This document shows positions 11,015-57,153 of a stretch of DNA of 64,000 nucleotides, in pieces (position 1 is the stretch's first letter; every line of letters starts with the position of its first letter). This DNA comes from a bacterium (GTDB lineage Bacteria > Patescibacteriota > Minisyncoccia > Phycocordibacterales > Phycocordibacteraceae), in assembly GCA_027311385.1 (NCBI GenBank), contig DAICZA010000001.1, forward strand, positions 5,271 to 69,270, given 5' to 3'. The position numbers and the translations under genes are program-made. The notes beneath the pieces are model-generated. The model saw nothing but the letters and a program-made list of their open reading frames with translations, was not told the DNA's origin and made no database searches.

Positions 11015-12769
11015 TTACCCCGAGCTCGCCGGGGCGCCTGTCTGGGTGCTCGGGAGGCCGCGGTCGGGCGGAACCTGGTAATAGTCAATCAGGAAGTGCA
11101 CGAGGTCAAGGAATGTGCTGTCCAGCGTCTCGGACGCATATTCCACGTGTTTCGGGTTATCTGTATAGAGCAGGATGATGAACCGCGGATTATACGAGGG
11201 GAAAAACCCGACAAACGAATGGAAAAAGCGGTCGGTGTAGTAACCGCCGCCGGGCTTGGTGAGCTGTGCGGTGCCGGTCTTCGCCGCAACCGACATCGTG
11301 GGAATAATCGCCCGACCGCCCTGCAGCACCGTATCAACCATATCGGTCATCATTTGCGTCGTCTCGTGCGCCGCTGTCGCTGAGAAGATACGCGTTGTCT
11401 GGCTCCAATCAAGCGTGCGGGTGATACCGGAATCCAGACGTACGGCGCTTGCGAGGTGCGGCTGTACCATCACGCCGCCGTTGGCGATGGCGCCGAGCGC
11501 GCGAATCATCTGCACCGGCGTCTCCGCGATGCCCTGCCCGAACGACGCCGTATCGTAATCAACCTGTTCCGGCTGGGAAAGATTAGAGAGGAGCGCGTGC
11601 CCCTCGTTCGGCAAGTCAATGCCCGTCTTCTGCCCGAAGAGTTCGGTGAAGTAGGCGCGGAATTTATCCTGCCCCAACTGCGTCGCGACCCACGAGGCGC
11701 CGACGTTGAGCGACTGAAGGATGATTTGCTCCATCGGGATGACGCCGCGCGCCTTTGAATCCCAATTGCAGATATGCGCATTGTTTACAGTGATGCAGCC
11801 CGTGTCGTCATAGGTGGTCTGCGGCGTGATGACACCCGCGTCCAGCGCCGAAGTCATCGTGAGCGGCTTCATAATGGAGCCGAATTCGTGCACGTGCTCC
11901 ACAAGCGGATTGCCGAGCAGGGTCGGGTCCACGTTCTGCAGGTTATTTTCGTCGTAGGTCGGATACGAGGTAAGCGCGATGATAGCACCGGTCGCGGGAT
12001 CCATAATGATGCCGCCCGAGTCGTCGCTTGAATACCGCTGATTCACCTTTGCGATATCGTCTTGGAGCCGCGTCTGGACCTCCGGCTCAATCGTGGTCAC
12101 GACGTCGCCTTCGTGTGCGTCCTTCGCGTTCACCAGCAGACTGCCCACGTTGGAGAAAAGCTCCGCAAAGAAATTTTTATACAGCGAGTCACCCGAGCGC
12201 GAGAGCACGCCGTCGTAGGTCGCTTCAAGCCCCGTTTGGCCGACCAGCGTATCGCCCGAACCGTAGGAGACGATGCCGATAGACTGCGCCGCGAGCGAGC
12301 CGCCCGGGTAGTAGCGCCAGCTTTCGCGCAGGACCTGGACGCCGGGAATGCCGAGTGCGGCAAGCGCCTGCCCGTCCGCGTCCGAGAGGTGGTGCGCGAC
12401 TTCCACGTATACCAGGTTCTTCTTCGCGGCGGCGGCGAGGAAAGCGTCGCGTGAGAGCGTTGATGAAGCGACGGCGCTTATCGCGCTATATGCCGCCGCG
12501 GGGTCGGTGATGGTTTGCGGATTGATGGCGACGAGAAATCCGGTCGCGAGCGTTGCCGCGGAAATGAGTGTGCCATCCTTGCGAGTGAAGTAGATGGACC
12601 CGCGGTCAAAGAGCCCGCTCCCGCCGGATGCGAATTGCCGGTCGGCTTTTTGCGCGTACTCGGCGCCGTGCACAATCTGGATGAAATAGAGGCGCAGGAG
12701 GGTCAAAAGCGCAGCAAGAACGATGAACGTGAGAACAAGGCGAATGCGTGAGCGAAACTGTGCACGCAT
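11015..12769 (-). CDS. ftsI: Class B penicillin-binding protein (FtsI-like); start codon rebuilt by element E1
   Basis: GSIMK (SxxK), SLN (SxN), KTGTAQ; position in mraZ-rsmH-ftsI-murF cluster. Confidence 0.85.
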   Translation of the reverse strand: MRAQFRSRIRLVLTFIVLAALLTLLRLYFIQIVHGAEYAQKADRQFASGGSGLFDRGSIYFTRKDGTLISAATLATGFLVAINPQTITDPAAAYSAISAVASSTLSRDAFLAAAAKKNLVYVEVAHHLSDADGQALAALGIPGVQVLRESWRYYPGGSLAAQSIGIVSYGSGDTLVGQTGLEATYDGVLSRSGDSLYKNFFAELFSNVGSLLVNAKDAHEGDVVTTIEPEVQTRLQDDIAKVNQRYSSDDSGGIIMDPATGAIIALTSYPTYDENNLQNVDPTLLGNPLVEHVHEFGSIMKPLTMTSALDAGVITPQTTYDDTGCITVNNAHICNWDSKARGVIPMEQIILQSLNVGASWVATQLGQDKFRAYFTELFGQKTGIDLPNEGHALLSNLSQPEQVDYDTASFGQGIAETPVQMIRALGAIANGGVMVQPHLASAVRLDSGITRTLDWSQTTRIFSATAAHETTQMMTDMVDTVLQGGRAIIPTMSVAAKTGTAQLTKPGGGYYTDRFFHSFVGFFPSYNPRFIILLYTDNPKHVEYASETLDSTFLDLVHFLIDYYQVPPDRGLPSTQTGAPASSG

Positions 12770-12885
12770 CCCGTTAGAAATAGAACACGAACGCACTTTT
12801 TGCGCCGTACTCTATCCAGCTAGTGTTTGTAATAACTGTCGTCATGATATTTTTTGGTGCGCTGTGTTCGTGATTTCTAACGGGA
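12769..12885 (-). mobile_element. Start-codon insertion element E1 (117 bp) at ftsI
   Basis: TIR TCCCGTTAGAAAT/ATTTCTAACGGGA; 4-bp duplication (+ strand CGCA at 12765-68 and 12886-89); original ATG at 12890. Confidence 0.85.
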
Positions 12886-13178: not shown

Positions 13179-14208
13179 AAGAAAGAAGAGAAGTTAGCGT
13201 AGACGCCGATTCAGGGCGCGGTGAAGCCGTACCGCGCTCAAACACGCGCAATTTCGCGCTCCGCGCCCGGCGATTGGCGAGCAACTCCGCGCGCGACGGC
13301 GTGACGGGCTTTTTGGGATGAACGGTCCCCCACCCCGCCTCGGCCGCGTCGCGCAGGGTGTTCTTCACAATGCGGTCTTCAATGCTGTGGAACGAAATGA
13401 CTGCAAGTTTTCCGCCCGGCGCGAGCGCGGAAAAGGCGGCCGCAAGTCCTTCGCGGAGCGCACCGATTTCATCGTTGGCCGCGATACGGAGCGCCTGAAA
13501 TGTCTTCGTCGCCGGATGTATTTTCCGTTCGTGATACGAGCGCGGCGTGCCGGCGAGAACCGCGCGTACCAGGGCGTCGGTCGTGAGGATGCGTTCCTTG
13601 GCGCGCGCCGCCACAATGGCGCGCGCGATGGCGCGTGCGAAATGCTCCTCCCCGTACGTGAAGATGATATCCGCGAGGTCCGCTTCCGACGACATATTCA
13701 CAATGTCGGCCGCCGTCTCGCCGCCCTCGCCGTACGTCATCAGGAGCGGCTCGTCGTTCTGGAACGAGAAGCCGCGCGGCGTCGCGATTTGGTACCCGCT
13801 CCAACCGAGGTCAAACAGCATCTTGTTCACCTGGCCGATGCCGAGCCGCTCAAGAATGCGCGTGAGATTGCGGAAGTTGTCGTTGACCAGGTGCGCCACC
13901 GGGCGCTCGGGCCGGCGGTCGCGCGCGTAGGCCGCGCGCGCGCGGGCGACGGCGGCGGGGTCGGCGTCAATGCCGATAATCGTGCCGTCCTCGCCGAGCG
14001 CGGCGAGGAGTTCCGCGAAGTGCCCCGCTCCGCCCAAGGTCGCGTCCACGACCGTATCGCCCGGCGCGACGGAGAGCGCGGCGAGCACTTCCTGCATCAG
14101 CACCGGTTCGTGACGAGCCTCCACCCCGTTAGAGATATTCCTCTCGAGAGGTAGCAGGCGACGACGAGACGACGAACTTCCCTTTCCAAAATCTCTAACG
14201 GGGTCCAT
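13171..14208 (-). CDS. rsmH: 16S rRNA m4C1402 methyltransferase RsmH (N-terminus includes in-frame element E2)
   Basis: HEPVL, DATLGGAGH, FDLGWS, HPATKTFQALRIAAN, SFHSIEDRIVK, RARSAKLR. Confidence 0.95.
   Translation of the reverse strand: MDPVRDFGKGSSSSRRRLLPLERNISNGVEARHEPVLMQEVLAALSVAPGDTVVDATLGGAGHFAELLAALGEDGTIIGIDADPAAVARARAAYARDRRPERPVAHLVNDNFRNLTRILERLGIGQVNKMLFDLGWSGYQIATPRGFSFQNDEPLLMTYGEGGETAADIVNMSSEADLADIIFTYGEEHFARAIARAIVAARAKERILTTDALVRAVLAGTPRSYHERKIHPATKTFQALRIAANDEIGALREGLAAAFSALAPGGKLAVISFHSIEDRIVKNTLRDAAEAGWGTVHPKKPVTPSRAELLANRRARSAKLRVFERGTASPRPESASTLTSLLSYA
14124..14203 (-). mobile_element. Start-codon insertion element E2 (80 bp) at rsmH
   Basis: TIR CCCCGTTAGAGAT/ATCTCTAACGGGG; duplication TCCA at 14120-23 and 14204-07; rebuilds GTG; adds 84 nt in frame. 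Confidence 0.85.
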
Positions 14209-21887: not shown

Positions 21888-21888
<1 letters not shown>

Positions 21889-21989
21889 CCCGTTAGAAGT
21901 CTTACTCATAGTCAAAAGTTATTACCGCGAATGTTTGCGTCGAAAGACCCTCGTTAGGTACTTGCCCTGGCCGCGGACTTCTAACGGGA
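21888..21989 (-). mobile_element. Start-codon insertion element E3 (102 bp) at proS
   Basis: TIR TCCCGTTAGAAGT/ACTTCTAACGGGA; duplication CTCA at 21884-87 and 21990-93; original ATG at 21994. Confidence 0.85.
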
Positions 21990-28752: not shown

Positions 28753-29111
28753 CGGTCGCGGCGGAGCATATTCTTAATTGCGGAGCTGCCGCGCTTCCAG
28801 AGCCGGCGCGTGCGCCCGCGCGAGCGCCGTATCTCCGCCTCCAGCTGGCTCCTGACCCGGTCGGCGGCGCTCTCGGGAGTCGGCTTCACCGCCTCGGCAT
28901 GGAATACCGTGTCATTGATGACGAGCCGTGCGACGAGACGGCACGGCTCCGACGAGCGCCCCTCCGGCGGCGCTTCCTCCACTTCTATTTCAAGCAATGC
29001 ATTCTCCTTCTCGTCGCCGAGCAGGCGCAGCGGGGCCGCGAGCTTCTCCTCTACCAATGCTTCCGTCTCAGGCGAGAGGTGATACTTCGTTGCTTTGATA
29101 GTGATGTTCAT
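28749..29111 (-). CDS. HPF/RaiA family ribosome-associated protein; start codon rebuilt by E5
   Basis: MNITIKATKYHLSPE..LVEEKL...AADRVRSQLEAEIRR pattern. Confidence 0.75.
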   Translation of the reverse strand: MNITIKATKYHLSPETEALVEEKLAAPLRLLGDEKENALLEIEVEEAPPEGRSSEPCRLVARLVINDTVFHAEAVKPTPESAADRVRSQLEAEIRRSRGRTRRLWKRGSSAIKNMLRRDR

Positions 29112-29227
29112 CCCGTTAGAGGTAGGAAATCGGAGATTTCCGTACGATTATTGATAATGGTTTTCACCCACTGTCACATAGTTTACCACAAGACCTTAAT
29201 TACCCAAGGTTTTGACCTCTAACGGGA
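29111..29227 (-). mobile_element. Start-codon insertion element E5 (117 bp) at the HPF/RaiA gene
   Basis: TIR TCCCGTTAGAGGT/ACCTCTAACGGGA; duplication TTCA at 29107-10 and 29228-31. Confidence 0.85.
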
Positions 29228-29242
29228 TTCATAGGCAGGAGG

Positions 29243-29461
29243 TCAGCTACTAATGCTTACCATCTTAGCCCGAGAATGATGTCCTGTCAGTATGCGCACT
29301 GCGCCAACCGGCTTCCCGACGCGGAGCGCGACGAGCTCGCGCACGCGGGTGTTCGCGCGGTTCTGCGCTGCCGGCTCGCGGACCGCTATGAGGAGGGTCT
29401 CGCCTTTTTCTTCCACCCTCTCGCGCTTCGCGCCCGGTGTGACGAAGATTTTTATAAACAT
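29243..29461 (-). CDS. DUF167 (YggU-like) protein; start codon rebuilt by E6
   Basis: IFVTPGAK...VREPAAQNRAN...ILTGHHSRAK. Confidence 0.85.
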   Translation of the reverse strand: MFIKIFVTPGAKRERVEEKGETLLIAVREPAAQNRANTRVRELVALRVGKPVGAVRILTGHHSRAKMVSISS

Positions 29462-29577
29462 CCCGTTAGAGACAGGGTACGGAATCTCCCTGTACGGCCG
29501 TCTTATTCGGCTTCGCACTCGACCTTATGAATATATGCATGGTGTCCATATTACCGTACTCGCTGTCTCTAACGGGA
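29461..29577 (-). mobile_element. Start-codon insertion element E6 (117 bp) at the DUF167 gene
   Basis: TIR TCCCGTTAGAGACAG/CTGTCTCTAACGGGA; duplication AACA at 29457-60 and 29578-81; original ATG (29582) overlaps the glutaredoxin TAA. Confidence 0.88.
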
Positions 29578-30953: not shown

Positions 30954-31518
30954 GGTTAAAGTTCAGAACCCGATGGTATACTGCACAGAGTATGCCAAAA
31001 GAAAAAAGAACTTATGCCGATCGTGCCGAGTATTTGCGTAAGGCCGTTTCCGAACGTCGTAAGAAACTTCGTGAAATGGCGCGCGAATACCGGGGCGGGA
31101 AATGTATGATTTGTGGTTACAAACGGTATTCGGGAGCACTTGATTTCCACCATCGAGACCCCACGAAGAAAGACTTTGGTCTTTCTGTGAAGGGACTTAC
31201 GCGATCGTGGGAGAAAATCAAAATAGAGATTGAGAAATGTGCTCTCGTGTGCGCAAACTGTCATCGCGAAATACATGCAGGCATTACGCAGCTTCCTACA
31301 GAAATGTAGACTGAAAACGAGGTGAATTCGGGGAAACCCTAACAGAGGAAATGCTGTGGGCAATCCCGAGCCAAGTCCCGAGAGTAATCAAGGGAAAGGT
31401 GTAGAGACTATCCCGCAAGGGAGTAGACCGAAAGGTCGAAGCGCCTCGCATCCGACATTTACGAAATGTAAAAAGGATGATGATATAGTCCATCCCGCCA
31501 GTAACGGCGGAACAAATG
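30954..31518 (+). ncRNA. Group I self-splicing intron in the tRNA-Asn anticodon
   Basis: 5' exon ends in U and intron ends in G; core motifs GAATTCGGGGAAA (P), AATCCCGAGC (Q), GTAGAGACTA (R), GATATAGTCC (S); candidate IGS TTACGCAGC at 31284-92. Confidence 0.9.
30992..31309 (+). CDS. Intron-encoded HNH homing endonuclease
   Basis: CMICGY...ALDFHHRDP...KCALVCANCHREIH. Confidence 0.88.
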   Translation: MPKEKRTYADRAEYLRKAVSERRKKLREMAREYRGGKCMICGYKRYSGALDFHHRDPTKKDFGLSVKGLTRSWEKIKIEIEKCALVCANCHREIHAGITQLPTEM

Positions 31519-41289: not shown

Positions 41290-41979
41290 CTATTTCCACT
41301 CAATGAGCTTCCCCGCTTTGAGTTCCATAGCATCGGCGCGGCGCACGTAGCGCCAGTTCCCTTTCGGCACGAGGAAATAATGCTTGCGTTCGGCGAGCGC
41401 GTCGGCGACGTTCCAGAGATCCGTCTCGGCGGTGAGCCACGCCGCGCCGATGCGGTCTGCCCCCGACGGGGCGCCGATGCGGTCTGCCCCCGACGGGGCG
41501 CCGATGCGGCGCATATCGAGCGGCTTGGAGTAGCACTCCAGTGTCTTCTCCCGCGTCTCGTTCATAAACCACTCGTGGAAATACGAGAGCGCGAGCTCGC
41601 GCGGCGTCCGGTACACGGGGTCGCGGAAGCGGAGCACGGCGTGATTCGTCTTGCTGATGGCGCCATAGCGCCCGCCGCGCGCATACAGCGCCACGACGTG
41701 GTCCACGTCGCCCTTCCCCATCCGCGACGACAGATTCATGATAATCGGCGGCTCGCCGTGGACCCAGAGCGCGGCGGCGGCAAGCAGAGCGCCCTCAATG
41801 CAGTGCGCCTTCTTCTCGCGCAGGACGCGGCGCGGGGACATATGCGTATCACCGCTCTTCTCCAGATTGAACGGGAGCGTGTCCAGGAAATCCTGAATCT
41901 TCGCCGGCGTAGAGAGCCGCGAGAGCGTCTCATACTCACCGCGATTGAATCCGGATTTGGCGCGAGTGAGATGCTTCAT
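41290..41979 (-). CDS. Conserved hypothetical protein (transglutaminase-like Cys/His); start codon rebuilt by E7
   Basis: AHCIEGALLAAAAL, DHVVALY, GAISKTNH, RDPVYRT.RELALSYFHEW. Confidence 0.75.
   Translation of the reverse strand: MKHLTRAKSGFNRGEYETLSRLSTPAKIQDFLDTLPFNLEKSGDTHMSPRRVLREKKAHCIEGALLAAAALWVHGEPPIIMNLSSRMGKGDVDHVVALYARGGRYGAISKTNHAVLRFRDPVYRTPRELALSYFHEWFMNETREKTLECYSKPLDMRRIGAPSGADRIGAPSGADRIGAAWLTAETDLWNVADALAERKHYFLVPKGNWRYVRRADAMELKAGKLIEWK
41444..41509. repeat. 27-bp in-frame tandem repeat (2.4 copies)
   Basis: GCGCCGATGCGGTCTGCCCCCGACGGG x2 + 12 nt, encoding RIGAPSGAD repeats. Confidence 0.9.
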
Positions 41980-42260
41980 CCCGTTAGAGATAGGAAACGC
42001 TTCAGTCTGTTTTTTAGATATCGTTTCCCCATCCCGGTTTTTAGATACGTCTCCCGAGCCGTTGCGTCGTTTAGATTGCGGCATGCTTCGTAATATACCA
42101 GTTCGTAGGGGCGGTGGCGTTTCGTCCACCCGCGTGGGGCTGTCTGGTGCTGGCTGAAGCGTTTCCGTAAATCATTCGTGACACCGGTGTACCAATAATC
42201 ACTTGTGAGGCTTCTGATGACGTACACATAGCACATGTTGTCATCTCTAACGGGATTCAT
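41976..42260 (-). CDS. GIY-YIG nuclease (94 aa) encoded across element E7
   Basis: YVYVIRS...WYTGVTNDLRKRFSQH...TKRHRPYELVYYE...ARETYLKTGMG; starts at host ATG, TGA overlaps rebuilt ATG. Confidence 0.9.
   Translation of the reverse strand: MNPVRDDNMCYVYVIRSLTSDYWYTGVTNDLRKRFSQHQTAPRGWTKRHRPYELVYYEACRNLNDATARETYLKTGMGKRYLKNRLKRFLSLTG
41979..42255 (-). mobile_element. Start-codon insertion element E7 (277 bp) carrying a GIY-YIG gene
   Basis: TIR TCCCGTTAGAGAT/ATCTCTAACGGGA; duplication TTCA at 41975-78 and 42256-59. Confidence 0.9.
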
Positions 42261-42322
42261 CCCGAAATGATACCGCATAAAAAGAGCGCGCCCCGAGACG
42301 GGGCGCGCTCTTTTTATATGTC

Positions 42323-56451: not shown

Positions 56452-57153
56452 ATGATGAGGAAGATGGAACTTTGGCACGCACTCAATCGGGGCGTTGACG
56501 GAAGAGATCTCTTTCTAGATTCTCAAGATTATGCACGCTTTGTTCACAATCTCTACGAATTTAACGACGTAGCCCCAGCTGATAATCTTGTGCGTCTCTT
56601 TGATCCTTCTGGTATGAGGGATTTCCGAAACCCTTCATTTAGGAAAAGCCGCAAGATGTTGGTGGATATTCACGGGTGGACATTGATGAAGAACCATTAT
56701 CATCTTTTGCTATCCGAAAGAATCGAAAACGGTATTAGATTATTTCTTCGCAAACTGAATGTTGGCTATGCAAATTATTTCAACAAACGCTACGAACGGA
56801 AAGGAACCCTTTTCCAAGGACATACAAAGAAAATATTGATCGTGCGCCAATCGCATTTTCTTTATATTCTCCATTATTTGCACCTTAATCCGCTTGATTA
56901 TCTTTCAGGTGCACAAGAATGGCGTCTGCGCAGTAAAAACGGGATCCGGGGCACGGGAGCAGCATTAGAACATCTTGACTCATATCGCTGGAGCAGTTAT
57001 CTCGATTATACTGGCAAAAAGAACTTCCCTTCTATTCTTACCCCGTCTCTTTTTAAGAATGTGCTCGGTGACTATCGCGATTCGCTCAAGGAATATCTTC
57101 ATGACGCCGAGTATGAATACGATGACGGTATAACGAGACTGACTATGGAATGA
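56452..57153 (+). CDS. REP-associated tyrosine (Y1/HUH) transposase, RAYT-like
   Basis: HALNRG, LMKNHYHLLL (HUH), YFNKRYERKGTLFQ, YLHLNP, YRWSSY; AT-rich relative to flanks. Confidence 0.88.
   Translation: MMRKMELWHALNRGVDGRDLFLDSQDYARFVHNLYEFNDVAPADNLVRLFDPSGMRDFRNPSFRKSRKMLVDIHGWTLMKNHYHLLLSERIENGIRLFLRKLNVGYANYFNKRYERKGTLFQGHTKKILIVRQSHFLYILHYLHLNPLDYLSGAQEWRLRSKNGIRGTGAALEHLDSYRWSSYLDYTGKKNFPSILTPSLFKNVLGDYRDSLKEYLHDAEYEYDDGITRLTME
56614..56638. repeat. REP-like palindrome copy 2 (inside the transposase ORF)
   Basis: ATGAGGGATTTCCGAAACCCTTCAT. Confidence 0.75.

Follow-up and report, generated by a model that had tools for sequence, protein, structure and literature searches.

A host gene of 229 codons lies on the minus strand of the window (the whole 64,000-nucleotide stretch of DNA that was analysed), and its start codon carries an element, E7, with a single open reading frame for a small GIY-YIG nuclease. 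The features of this locus and the short copies E1 to E6 in the same window are collected in Table 1.

Table 1. Coordinates of E7, its host gene and the short copies in the window (TSD, target site duplication; S2, inner stem).
Feature	Position	Strand	Remarks
E1, short copy, 117 bp, TSD TGCG	12769..12885	minus	on ATG of a 584-codon ORF
E2, short copy, 80 bp, CCCCG type, TSD TGGA	14124..14203	minus	rebuilds GTG; frame open into host ORF
E3, short copy, 102 bp, TSD TGAG	21888..21989	minus	
E4, short copy, 118 bp, TSD TGAA	27288..27405	plus	on ATG of a 179-codon ORF; left-ATG frame also ends at ATGA
E5, short copy, 117 bp, TSD TGAA, GAGGT type	29111..29227	minus	S2 is a small hairpin, GGAAATC-TCC-GATTTCC, then T, then the end
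E6, short copy, 117 bp, TSD TGTT	29461..29577	minus	
Host gene, 229 codons, no Pfam family	41290..41979	minus	start rebuilt by E7; orthologues 57-80% identical
TSD of E7, right copy TGAA	41975..41978	minus	gives nuclease TGA stop and TG of rebuilt host ATG
Nuclease ORF, GIY-YIG, 94 aa and stop	41976..42260	minus	Pfam PF01541, E=5e-16
Element E7 proper	42255-41979	minus	277 bp, perfect 13-bp inverted ends; insertion relative to orthologues with an empty site
E7 right end ATCTCTAACGGGA	41979..41991	minus	codes C-terminal SLTG; final A is A of rebuilt host ATG
S2, right arm CTGAAGCGTTTCC	41993..42005	minus	within LKRFL codons; single T (41992) between S2 and right end
S2, left arm GGAAACGCTTCAG	42154..42166	minus	within LRKRFS codons; element nt 90-102
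E7 left end TCCCGTTAGAGAT	42243..42255	minus	codes nuclease residues 2-6 (NPVRD)
TSD of E7, left copy TGAA	42256..42259	minus	with A42260, original host ATG, now the nuclease start
-10-like box TATCAT	42267..42272	minus	the host's; 6 nt (TTCGGG), then ATG 42260-42258; leaderless arrangement
Hairpin with flanking A- and T-runs, terminator-like	42279..42315	minus	after stop of upstream gene (42325-42323); equivalents at orthologous loci

The inverted ends of E7 are perfect (ATCCCGTTAGAGAT at 41978-41991 on the plus strand and 42243-42256 on the minus strand), and 13 matches to the ends at no more than 2 mismatches were found in the window, against 0.18 expected (largest number in 100 shuffles: 3). 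The anatomy could be refined to 13-bp ends, a 4-bp duplication (TGAA) and a last element base that is the A of the rebuilt ATG, with the insertion point at A^TGAA on the host start codon. This A was assigned to the element because the left flank reads GTG but the right start reads ATG at C26:250 and C42:25550. The single ORF of E7 opens at the old host ATG, crosses both ends and closes with the TGA of the duplication, which forms an ATGA overlap. An earlier, sequence-only reading of this DNA had described an ORF that begins MNPVRD at the host ATG (42260), passes through the left terminal inverted repeat, holds a complete small GIY-YIG domain and ends LSLTG through the right repeat with its stop overlapping the rebuilt ATG; each of these points was borne out by the 94-residue ORF at 42260..41976, by the position of its TGA (41978-41976) relative to the host ATG (41979-41977), and by the Pfam match described below.

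That reading had also placed a TATCAT box 6 nt before the original host ATG, where it is indeed found (42272-42267), and had taken both promoter and start codon to be hijacked from the host. Orthologues of the host gene in four genomes (G007, G023, G008 and G010) are uninterrupted and retain the hairpin, then GGTATCAT, TATCCT or TATTCT, then 6-7 nt and ATGAAG or ATGAGG; the -10 box and the ATG are therefore the host's, since the insertion-free orthologues keep both. The orthologous locus in G017 resembles the same empty-site arrangement. A simple sigma-70 consensus scan of the E7 locus gave no full promoter with a -35 box; TATCAT went unflagged because the scan requires a -35 box, and the hairpin was unflagged as a terminator because its T-run pairs with its A-run. 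The comparison of orthologous sequences shows E7 to be an insertion at a host start codon that has taken over host signals, and the nuclease is presumably made from the host promoter and start codon. Among the 78 end-bounded relatives (a subset of the 80 best loci in the genome collection), the flanking ATG opens the reading frame in 55, of which 52 stop at the TGA of ATGA. At least nine relatives (L018, L023, L041, L045 and L088-L092) have no internal Met before the GIY motif. A nuclease ORF that really begins at the host ATG is supported by these reading frames and by the dN/dS given below.

The E7 nuclease matched Pfam family PF01541 over residues 9-76 (59.2 bits; cut-off 22.6) and consists of this single domain. 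Across 53 aligned relatives, Y11, Y24, R34, H38 and E70 are invariant and Y13 is kept in 90% or more; we take Y11 (GIY), Y24 (YIG), R34, H38 and E70 to be the catalytic residues. In an AlphaFold2 model (pLDDT 88), strands at 10-17, 23-28 and 52-60 form a three-stranded sheet packed by helices at 31-40, 63-73 and 76-93, as in the GIY-YIG fold. Foldseek matched this model to UPF0213 (1zg2), Slx1 and UvrC N-terminal domains, a profile comparison matched the nuclease to 1zg2 (E=3.7e-12), and the nearest solved structures are UPF0213 and Slx1. Outside the ends, the dN/dS of the ORF is 0.04-0.11, and the ORF appears to evolve under purifying selection. NCBIfam returned nothing above cut-off for this ORF (intron-endonuclease model TIGR01453: 16.4 bits against 56). 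A known transposase class (DDE, HUH, serine or tyrosine recombinase) was considered for E7 and rejected, its sole ORF being GIY-YIG. GIY-YIG enzymes act on DNA by hydrolysis, and joining of strands is not known for them.

Nuclease gene and ends, with nothing besides, recur as one unit in many Patescibacteria and on many different start codons. The sequence-only reading had asked whether GIY-YIG relatives are flanked by the terminal inverted repeats, and almost all are: the ends lie tight round the ORF in 58 of 69 order-wide relatives and in 78 of the 80 best relatives of the genome collection, with element lengths mostly of 271-298 bp and differing host genes. The right end encodes the C-terminal LSLTG or YLTG in all classes, and end variants alter both arms jointly (e.g. 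TCACG/CGTGA, CGTACGAAAT and CCCTGTTAAAT); 99.2% of outer-end cells are paired across 80 elements. Where the duplication reads TGGA or TGGG, the TCACG variant itself provides a TGA in frame. An exact 4-bp duplication flanks 53 of the 78 coding copies; some relatives have 2, 3 or 7 bp. Nuclease copies that are 85-88% identical sit at three different genes, and more distant copies at four more; in a single genus, E7-type copies are therefore spread over no fewer than 7 host genes, and tandem insertions into the rebuilt ATGAA occur among relatives. The distribution of the E7-clade nuclease within the genus is patchy (8 of 100 genomes), and a quick, poorly resolved gene tree is discordant with taxon labels, with one 99% clade mixing records labelled Paceibacterota, Kaiserbacteria, Nomurabacteria and Saccharibacteria. 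Around the two further small GIY-YIG genes in this genome, no convincing inverted repeats were found. A catalogue of ORFs between such ends, which had likewise been proposed, contained in this genome none besides the nuclease. Where the sequence-only reading had left open whether the gene is the autonomous agent or cargo, the recurrence of the ends, the lack of any other ORF in this genome and the copies at three genes favour a nuclease integral to the element; mere cargo is argued against because the relatives are end-bounded at different genes and under purifying selection.

Around 35 such elements are present in this genome (39 candidate pairs, 30 of them orientable). An exact 4-bp duplication TGNN flanks 29 of the 30 oriented copies; left starts comprise 28 ATG and 2 GTG, rebuilt starts 25 ATG and 5 GTG. 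An ORF of at least 72 codons follows 26 of the 30, which places these copies on the start codon of a long ORF. If non-coding and start ATGNR sites were equally tolerated, start-codon placement would be expected at 17.6% (P of 25 or more out of 30 = 8e-15). C is absent from the last position of the duplications, although 124 of 365 ATG-start ORFs carry it there, and the sites share only A-T-G-N-purine. No upstream target motif beyond ATGNR was found (a -10-like hexamer is present at 11 of 29 and 24 of 71 sites), and no tRNA was found at a recurrent non-ATG site; no motif beyond ATGNR accounts for the choice of start codons. The idea that the duplication is carried along was not supported, as the nearest-neighbour copy has the same duplication 8 times out of 21, where 5.2 would be expected (p=0.12).

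The short copies resemble E7 at their right end. E5 (29111-29227) had been said to share the subterminal sequence of E7, and both contain TTTCCTAYCTCTAACGGGA; the further suggestion that short copies can derive from the E7 type gains support from the common right-end layout of inner stem, one T and end. Only one nuclease copy, with GAGAT ends, is present in this genome; most short copies have GAAAT or GAGGT ends. Local alignment of short-copy interiors with the coding element gave scores not above shuffled controls, and only 5 of 6 GAGGT-type copies align with the coding form, over a collinear stretch of some 20 nt beside S2. The interiors of the short copies here are 55-81% identical, and these copies appear to be old. 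In 117-bp copies the left frame is often closed by a TAA that lies 7 nt upstream of the rebuilt ATG (12 of 30), and the frame of E2 measures 345 codons when read from the left ATG and 317 when read from the rebuilt GTG. In four DNA runs, available as contigs only, no joint that removes E7 was found, the contigs breaking at its ends; the sole joint, which connects 41997 with 42236 through 82 intervening letters, is another short copy. Neither activity nor an excision product nor an empty/filled polymorphism of E7 was seen in these contigs.

A second 13-bp inverted repeat, S2, lies inside the ORF and adjoins the right end. Across 80 elements, 94.2% of S2 cells are paired and 6 of the 13 pairs change on both sides; for both helices together, 160 cells are changed on both sides against 44 +/- 6 in shuffled alignments (0 of 500 reached the observed value), and slid controls gave 28-50% of cells paired. 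Wobble cells number 14 in S2 against 60 unpaired cells, and the outer stem has no wobble. An earlier inner-hairpin candidate (G-K-R with R-F-L codons; 82.8% of cells paired, one covarying pair) is superseded by S2. On these alignments S2, newly described here, covaries in a strictly Watson-Crick manner, and this strict covariation points to folded DNA as the substrate. No folding strand bias was detected: of 29 elements, the top strand folds more stably in 18 under DNA parameters and in 17 under RNA parameters, neither figure being significant. A search of the elements against Rfam gave no match.

Taken together, E7 is a start-codon insertion, and we think it rather probable that its 94-residue GIY-YIG nuclease moves both E7 and the gene-less short copies, with the nuclease itself presumably doing the moving. 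In this scheme, the nuclease would be expressed from the host promoter and the host start codon, and the host protein would then be made by termination-reinitiation at ATGA. In single-stranded or extruded DNA, the ends and S2 would fold into a branched hairpin; the Slx1/UPF0213-like nuclease would recognise this structure and nick at its base, a few nt out in the variable flank, like Ssn nucleases. Excision and insertion would be finished by host replication, repair and ligase, leaving the 4-bp duplication; host enzymes would be needed because a hydrolytic GIY-YIG nuclease alone cannot join strands. The short copies, which retain the ends and S2, would be moved in trans. A fuller version of this proposal, to which we give somewhat less than an even chance, is that E7, with its 277 bp, is the smallest known autonomous transposon and that its sole protein, a 94-residue hydrolytic GIY-YIG nuclease, represents a new class of transposition enzyme acting on the branched fold of two nested inverted repeats; E7 would aim at start codons, leave the host gene intact and have spread horizontally through Patescibacteria. 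Start codons being its target, such a transposon would take promoter, start and stop codons from the host gene.

An enzyme supplied in trans by the host or by another element, e.g. a Y1 HUH transposase of the RAYT-like kind that is frequent in these genomes, could instead move the ends and the short copies, with the GIY-YIG gene riding in the hairpin as a passenger or as a maintenance nuclease (cutting empty or competing sites, homing or addiction). The sequence-only reading had proposed to test whether nuclease and short copies co-occur, and they do so in part: within the genus, 5 of the 18 genomes that carry 117-bp copies also have an E7-clade nuclease, compared with 3 of the 82 that carry none, and G016 has GAAGT-type short copies together with a nuclease element with GAAGT-type ends. 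Elsewhere they do not: 13 of the 18 genomes with 117-bp copies have no E7-clade nuclease, and G010 has 26 short copies and, as its only related nuclease, one with ends of another class (ACCCTGTTAAAT). That reading had held that the nuclease would be mere cargo if genomes rich in short elements lacked it and shared another transposase; G010, with its short copies, no nuclease of matching ends and four Y1_Tnp matches, points that way, but Y1_Tnp is widespread and its enrichment is only mild (14 of the 18 genomes with 117-bp copies have it, and 54 of all 100). This genome has five Y1_Tnp matches, one of them within the window (C11:61917-62078), and these, like the hydrolytic chemistry that we know for GIY-YIG enzymes, are in keeping with a trans-acting enzyme. 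Y1 HUH enzymes of the IS200/IS605 kind would, however, be expected to produce neither a duplication nor terminal inverted repeats, and duplications flank nearly all oriented copies; the nuclease is the sole ORF found between such ends in this genome; and the identity of its terminal codons with the ends, together with the position of S2 inside the ORF, is unexpected for a loose passenger. We consider movement by a trans enzyme unlikely.

The Ssn nucleases offer a different account. SsnA of Neisseria meningitidis is a 94-residue protein with a single GIY-YIG domain, ssn genes are bracketed by NTS/SRM hairpin repeats with one small hairpin on each side, and Ssn nucleases cut only single-stranded DNA, upstream of their own hairpin (Chenal et al. 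2025, PMC11893778). The authors remark that the NTS-ssnA-NTS unit resembles an insertion sequence and propose its domestication, and their Discussion cites IS200/IS605 and REP/RAYT elements (PMC11893778). By analogy, the E7 nuclease could belong to a host-kept system that cuts single-stranded DNA at hairpin repeats and modulates recombination or transformation, with the repeats being regulatory targets spread by recombination and not transposon ends. Protein size, the single domain, the many hairpin-forming repeats per genome and the proposed domestication of an insertion-sequence-like unit all accord with this, but the exact duplications, variable flanks, empty orthologous sites and tandem re-insertions do not, nor do the discordance of the quick gene tree with taxon labels and the patchiness within the genus. 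The published degenerate SRM motif is not enriched in this genome (7 matches against a mean of 6.3 in 10 first-order shuffles), and none of its matches lies within 1 kb of the three small GIY-YIG genes. We regard a host-kept Ssn-type system as quite improbable. An RNA role, in which the inverted repeats would fold into a leader that controls translation between two identical AUGNN or allows it to be bypassed, and would be conserved as mRNA structure and not for DNA mobility, draws on the position of the elements at the 5' end of leaderless mRNAs, on the strong stem flanked on both sides by identical AUGNN and on the recurrent TAA before the rebuilt ATG, but is highly improbable given the strictly Watson-Crick covariation, in which wobble pairs are not favoured, the equally good folding of both strands and the lack of an Rfam family match, and duplications and empty sites prove DNA insertion whatever the RNA may do.

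Should the nuclease move the element as we favour, transposition would be achieved with far less coding capacity than in any catalogued insertion sequence (IS), and by an enzyme type that to our knowledge is not known to transpose in bacteria. A repeat family littering the gene starts of ultra-small bacteria, including those of long, probably essential genes, would be explained, E7 would be a natural parasite living entirely on the expression signals of a host gene, and the Ssn single-strand nucleases would be linked to a mobile ancestor. Enzyme-hairpin pairs in which the ends co-vary with the protein could yield small structure-guided DNA nickases, and annotation is also affected: in Patescibacteria genomes, the inserts displace the start codons that are called and give rise to spurious small ORFs.

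Compared with bacterial IS and their MITE derivatives (e.g. Correia/NEMIS, RUP, ERIC), the E7 family has inverted ends, a fixed-length duplication, differing and empty sites, one coding and many short non-coding copies, and presumably co-transcription with neighbours. It differs in having no DDE, HUH, serine or tyrosine enzyme, hence no known transposase class, only a 94-residue hydrolytic nuclease, and in inserting on start codons with the codon rebuilt; the smallest IS known to us is roughly 700 bp, against 277 bp for E7. IS200/IS605 and REP/RAYT elements use a Y1 HUH enzyme in single-strand 'peel and paste' and have neither terminal inverted repeats nor target duplication. E7 shares with them subterminal hairpins that would be recognised in single-stranded DNA, very small size and abundant hairpin repeats, but membership was rejected, as E7 contains no Y1 HUH ORF and duplications are present. 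In GIY-YIG homing endonucleases such as I-TevI and the Seg proteins, DNA is bound through a separate domain and the target is a single allelic site; the likeness lies in a selfish GIY-YIG gene spreading between genomes, and identity was rejected on the single 94-residue domain, the unrelated host genes and the sub-threshold TIGR01453 score. UPF0213 and Slx1 proteins (BH0048 1zg2, EF2693 1ywl, Slx1 6seh) are the best sequence and fold matches of the E7 nuclease. Slx1 cuts branched DNA, whose shape resembles the predicted fold of the ends and S2, carries further domains and needs a partner; UPF0213/Slx1-like proteins are, as far as we know, chromosomal, and we know of no described inverted-repeat flanks for them.

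Of the systems described so far, the Ssn nuclease with its hairpin repeats comes closest. A full-text literature search found no described GIY-YIG element with inverted ends and no start-codon insertion, and only the Ssn paper, whose supplements might list Patescibacteria homologues, was relevant. UPF0213 is the nearest solved entry among the PDB matches of the E7 nuclease and no Ssn entry is among them. In E7, one hairpin spans the whole gene, whereas Ssn has a small hairpin on either side, and E7 has an exact 4-bp duplication, targets start codons and takes its own start and stop codons from the target; the text of PMC11893778 does not contain the terms 'start codon', 'target site duplication' or 'Patescibacteria'. 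What the two systems share, as far as that text describes Ssn, is a single-domain GIY-YIG protein of 94 residues and a gene bracketed by inverted-repeat DNA that also exists in many gene-less copies; the cleavage position described for Ssn would fit a gene in the loop with its junction 4 nt outside the stem.

The sequence-only reading held that E7, a 277-bp insertion with a GIY-YIG nuclease gene, takes over the promoter and start codon of a host gene, and the anatomy on which this rested was borne out: box, ATG and overlapping TGA lie where it had placed them (see table), the frame matches the Pfam GIY-YIG domain (E=5e-16), and each border carries the 14-mer ATCCCGTTAGAGAT in perfect inverted copies. 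Across the window this 14-mer is matched 13 times (≤2 mismatches) against 0.18 expected. Comparison of all copies refined the element ends to 13 bp (NCCCGTTAGAGAT) and the target duplication to 4 bp (TGNN). The A or G completing the rebuilt start codon is the last base of the element itself; two copies with a left GTG and a right ATG show this directly. Of 40 related genomes, 15 have an orthologue of the host protein; the uninterrupted start region in G007, G023, G008 and G010 (G017 is similar) carries a hairpin, a -10-like box (GGTATCAT, TATCCT or TATTCT), 6-7 nt and ATGAAG/ATGAGG, so that the box and ATG left of E7 are host property, with E7 inserted between A and TGAA. A consensus promoter scan of the E7 locus returned no full sigma-70 site and no -35 box; transcription from the -10-like box is suggested by its conserved position.

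Features of the E7 locus, of other copies and of neighbouring sequence (window positions, or contigs C of the host genome G000)
Feature	Position	Strand	Remark
Upstream gene stop TAG	42325-42323	-	read on minus strand
GC-rich hairpin, A- and T-runs either side	42315-42279	-	read on minus strand
-10-like box TATCAT	42272-42267	-	six bases, then ATG at 42260
Nuclease frame, 94 codons	ATG 42260 to TGA 41978-41976	-	sequence reading
Inner stem S2, first arm GGAAACGCTTCAG	42166-42154		codons LRKRFS
Inner stem S2, second arm CTGAAGCGTTTCC	42005-41993		codons LKRFL
Host ORF, 229 codons, without Pfam family	opens at ATG 41979-41977	-	ATG overlapped by nuclease TGA; protein MKHLTRAKSG...
CCCCG-type copy, in frame, rebuilding GTG	14124-14203	-	80 bp
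CCCCG-type copies, in frame, rebuilding GTG	C24:3185-3249; C33:5717-5781		65 bp
Copies with perfect ends, not on ATG	C42:12708-12829; C22:55312-55372		
Copy with internal TATAAT	C46:4445-4561		
Group I catalytic intron (Rfam)	31222-31511	+	79 bits, full model length
Y1_Tnp (RAYT-like) match	56647-56808 = C11:61917-62078	+	four other places in genome
Host protein, G014 and G489 elements			MKIYSWNMLF...
Host protein, G473 element			MKSIGEILPD...
Host protein, G017 element			MKIYYIVNAR...
Host protein, G449 element			MIVDGRALAK...
Host protein, G034 element			MKEFELEPGE...
Host protein, G007 and G005 elements			MKVSLKWLQT...

A scan for paired ends in the assembly (637,727 bp, 47 contigs, 100% complete) gave 39 candidates, 30 of which could be oriented from an (A/G/T)TG on the left and a TG on the right; about five of the nine others look real and four are short and mismatched. 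An exact 4-bp duplication flanks 29 of the oriented copies (TGAA 13, TGGA 6, TGAG 3, TGCG 3, and TGAT, TGGG, TGTT and TGTA one each), the exception having TGAG/TGAA. Their left codon is ATG in 28 and GTG in 2, the rebuilt start ATG in 25 and GTG in 5, and what follows is an ORF of 72-599 codons (26), a short ORF (3) or a contig end (1). Sizes cluster at 115-122, 102-106, 78-80 and 61-67 bp, and E7 is the only ORF-bearing element; among end pairs up to 3 kb apart in this genome, none surrounds any other content.

A crude map of 656 ORFs (89% coding) places ATGNR at 873 sites outside coding sequence and at 187 called starts; if all such sites were equally tolerated, 17.6% of surviving copies would be expected on starts, and at least 25 of 30 would be found there with a probability of 8e-15. 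Start codons are genuinely preferred by the elements. The consensus of reconstructed empty sites is A-T-G-N-purine only, a -10-like box lies 5-9 nt upstream at about a third of them, and some others lie within operons, behind a stop codon. C is never the last base of a duplication, although it stands there in 124 of 365 ATG-start ORFs. The preference could stem from recognition beyond the pentamer or from survival, copies on start codons being lost only via precise excision. Two copies with perfect ends lie off ATG, one without a duplication and the other with CTAA on both sides. Three CCCCG-type short copies are open in frame, so that translation from the old ATG would continue across the insert into the host ORF (345 vs 317, 460 vs 437 and 622 vs 599 codons from the old ATG and the rebuilt GTG), which may extend the host protein N-terminally by 23-28 element-encoded residues. 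In one subgroup of the 115-117-bp copies (C46:4445-4561 in this genome, related copies in G005, G010, G014, G034 and G444), internal GGTATATAATGACAACGCCATGG is a perfect TATAAT with an ATG 9 nt later that might serve as an outward or internal promoter.

Several lines favour a nuclease gene that is integral to the element over one that is cargo. Relatives of the E7 protein (E≤1e-8) occur in 224 of 401 genomes of the order, and at 58 of 69 fetched loci a 13-nt inverted pair (≤2 mismatches) closely surrounds the ORF, the bounded elements measuring mostly 271-298 bp. The left codon is ATG at 24 of the 69, with an exact 4-bp duplication at 21; ATG or GTG is rebuilt at 40, and 22 are in frame from the flanking ATG, 16 of which stop at ATGA. 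A species-representative genome collection held 376 relatives, and among the best 80 of these (58-88% identical) 78 have the ends, 55 a left ATG (3 more GTG), 53 an exact duplication (TGAA in 49), 66 a rebuilt ATG or GTG, 55 a frame open from the host ATG and 52 a stop at ATGA; the two sets overlap in some genomes, and their counts are not additive. Close relatives are thus nearly always flanked by the ends, a point that the sequence-only reading had put up for checking. Record titles cover many groups of Patescibacteria, namely Paceibacterota, Kaiser-, Nomura-, Lipton-, Jorgensen-, Ryan-, Giovannoni-, Levy- and Daviesbacteria and Saccharibacteria, with a few bins titled Omnitrophota, Bacillota or Gammaproteobacteria. 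In every class the right end encodes the C-terminal (F/Y)L(S)LTG, and variant ends are altered jointly on both arms (TCACG, TTCCG, CGTACGAAAT, CGATAGT, CCCTGTTAAAT); TCACG creates an in-frame TGA inside the end at the stop-less duplications TGGA/TGGG (L022, L027). In at least nine elements no Met precedes the GIY motif other than that of the host ATG, which leaves the latter as their sole possible start. Outside end-encoded codons, dN/dS is 0.07-0.11 for E7 against each of its three closest relatives, and 0.04-0.11 when all six pairs are counted. The start-codon habit marks a sub-group, since ATG is not the site of more distant classes (46-50% identity), whose ends are ACCCTGTTAAATAA and others. 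The two remaining small GIY-YIG genes of this genome (33-39% identity) lack such flanks, and a quick, poorly resolved tree places them outside the end-bounded genes, a group of 143 rows.

The AlphaFold2 model of the nuclease (pLDDT 88) follows the beta-beta-alpha-beta-alpha-alpha order of the GIY-YIG domain, with low confidence at the nine end-encoded N-terminal residues. A profile of 53 relatives, in which Y11, Y24, R34, H38 and E70 are invariant, matched UPF0213 1zg2 best (E=3.7e-12), then UPF0213 1ywl and Slx1; Foldseek gave the same ranking, UPF0213 before Slx1.

Full-length relatives (≥60% identity) occur in 8 of 100 other genomes of the genus, and their host genes differ (see table), so that copies 85-88% identical sit on three unrelated genes. 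Newer elements lie inside the ATGAA rebuilt by an older one at L160 and L162 and in the left flanks of L135, L145 and L178. Loci L121 and L124, about 1.4 kb apart on one contig, are two coding copies on neighbouring genes; they share 85-86% identity with E7, and their proteins hardly differ from one another, a sign of recent local movement. Two non-ATG sites occupied by coding elements recur, GCTTG/CCCCGTTAGAGAA.../TGAAC(A/G)TGGTG in three records (L146, L151, L171) and ...CAG(T)TTTA/G(T/C)CCGTTAGAG... with conserved flanks in four genomes (L031, L042, L049, L056; no tRNA there by ARAGORN); either old insertions inherited in common or a second type of target may lie behind them. The ACCCTGTTAAAT-class nuclease elements L110 (G010) and L093 (G442), from two genomes of the genus, have the same flank (...GAAGCGAAGCGAAAATAGTAACC/ACCCTG...), at a site that is either orthologous or preferred.

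We consider it fairly probable that the nuclease mobilises the family. Its expected co-occurrence with short copies held in part: of the 18 genus genomes with 117-bp copies 5 have an E7-clade nuclease, vs 3 of the 82 without, but most copy-bearing genomes lack it, and G010 has 26 short copies with its only related nuclease bearing other ends. The short copies of this genome are old (interiors 55-81% identical) and may therefore outlive their parent. The chief rival mobiliser is a RAYT-like Y1 transposase, whose genes are mildly enriched in short-copy genomes (14 of 18, vs 54 of 100 genus genomes); such enzymes are not known to make a target duplication or to need inverted ends. The Y1_Tnp matches of this genome lie at or just below the Pfam cut-off.

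Folded as single-stranded DNA, E7 pairs its ends and forms an inner stem, S2, new in this analysis, whose second arm adjoins the right end with one T between. In 83 of 88 coding elements, the 13 nt beside the right end have their longest internal complement at this position, 180-199 nt from that end, with exact runs of 9-13 nt in 65 of those. Across an alignment of 80 distinct elements, 99.2% of outer-stem and 94.2% of S2 cells are paired, compared with 28-50% in slid controls. Ten pairs have changes on both sides; double-change cells number 160 vs 44 +/- 6 in shuffles (0 of 500 reach this), figures that overstate independence because the aligned sequences are related. One S2 pair is A-T in 50 and G-C in 26 without wobble, a second C-G in 58 and T-A in 14, a third takes all four Watson-Crick types, and wobble cells are rare (14 vs 60 unpaired). 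The changes fall at synonymous sites within conserved K-R-F codons and therefore cannot be explained by protein constraint. That S2 is a real structure is still indicated by the slid controls and by the variety of pair types. An RNA-level role of the inverted repeats is less likely: strict Watson-Crick covariation and equal fold energies of both strands point to DNA, not RNA, as the folded molecule.

In the GAGGT-type 117-bp copies, including E5, the S2 layout is retained around a loop of 3 nt (GGAAATC-TCC-GATTTCC, one T, end); taking approximately the S2 loop out of the coding element would leave their length. The earlier suggestion that short copies derive from the E7 type is thus supported in layout but not in alignment, where a collinear block of about 20 nt beside S2 aligns in 5 of 6 GAGGT-type copies with scores not above shuffled controls. 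The 62-65-bp class folds into an outer stem and two hairpins, the second adjoining the right end, so that a branched fold at the element base is predicted for every form.

On the observed anatomy, insertion, spread and two stems we build a model in which the nuclease would be expressed from the host promoter and host ATG, and the host protein by reinitiation at the ATGA behind it; twelve 117-bp copies have a TAA in the right end 7 nt upstream of the ATG, after which reinitiation could likewise occur. Movement is modelled by analogy with Slx1, a branched-DNA nuclease, and with SsnA, a single-domain GIY-YIG nuclease reported to accept loops of any kind and even a hairpin that is split (PMC11893778). 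The 4-bp duplication would be consistent with each strand being nicked 4 nt beyond the stem, and strand joining would have to be by host enzymes; we hold these details far less firmly than the role of the nuclease itself.

A domesticated Ssn-like role of the nuclease is less likely; the published Ssn motif is not enriched in the genome and is absent near any small GIY-YIG gene. The main text of the Ssn paper makes no mention of start codons, target duplications or Patescibacteria (PMC11893778), and a full-text literature search found no description of such an element. We file it as IS/MITE-like, akin to pairs of a nuclease and hairpin repeats; should the nuclease prove sufficient to move it, the element would represent a new class of transposon.
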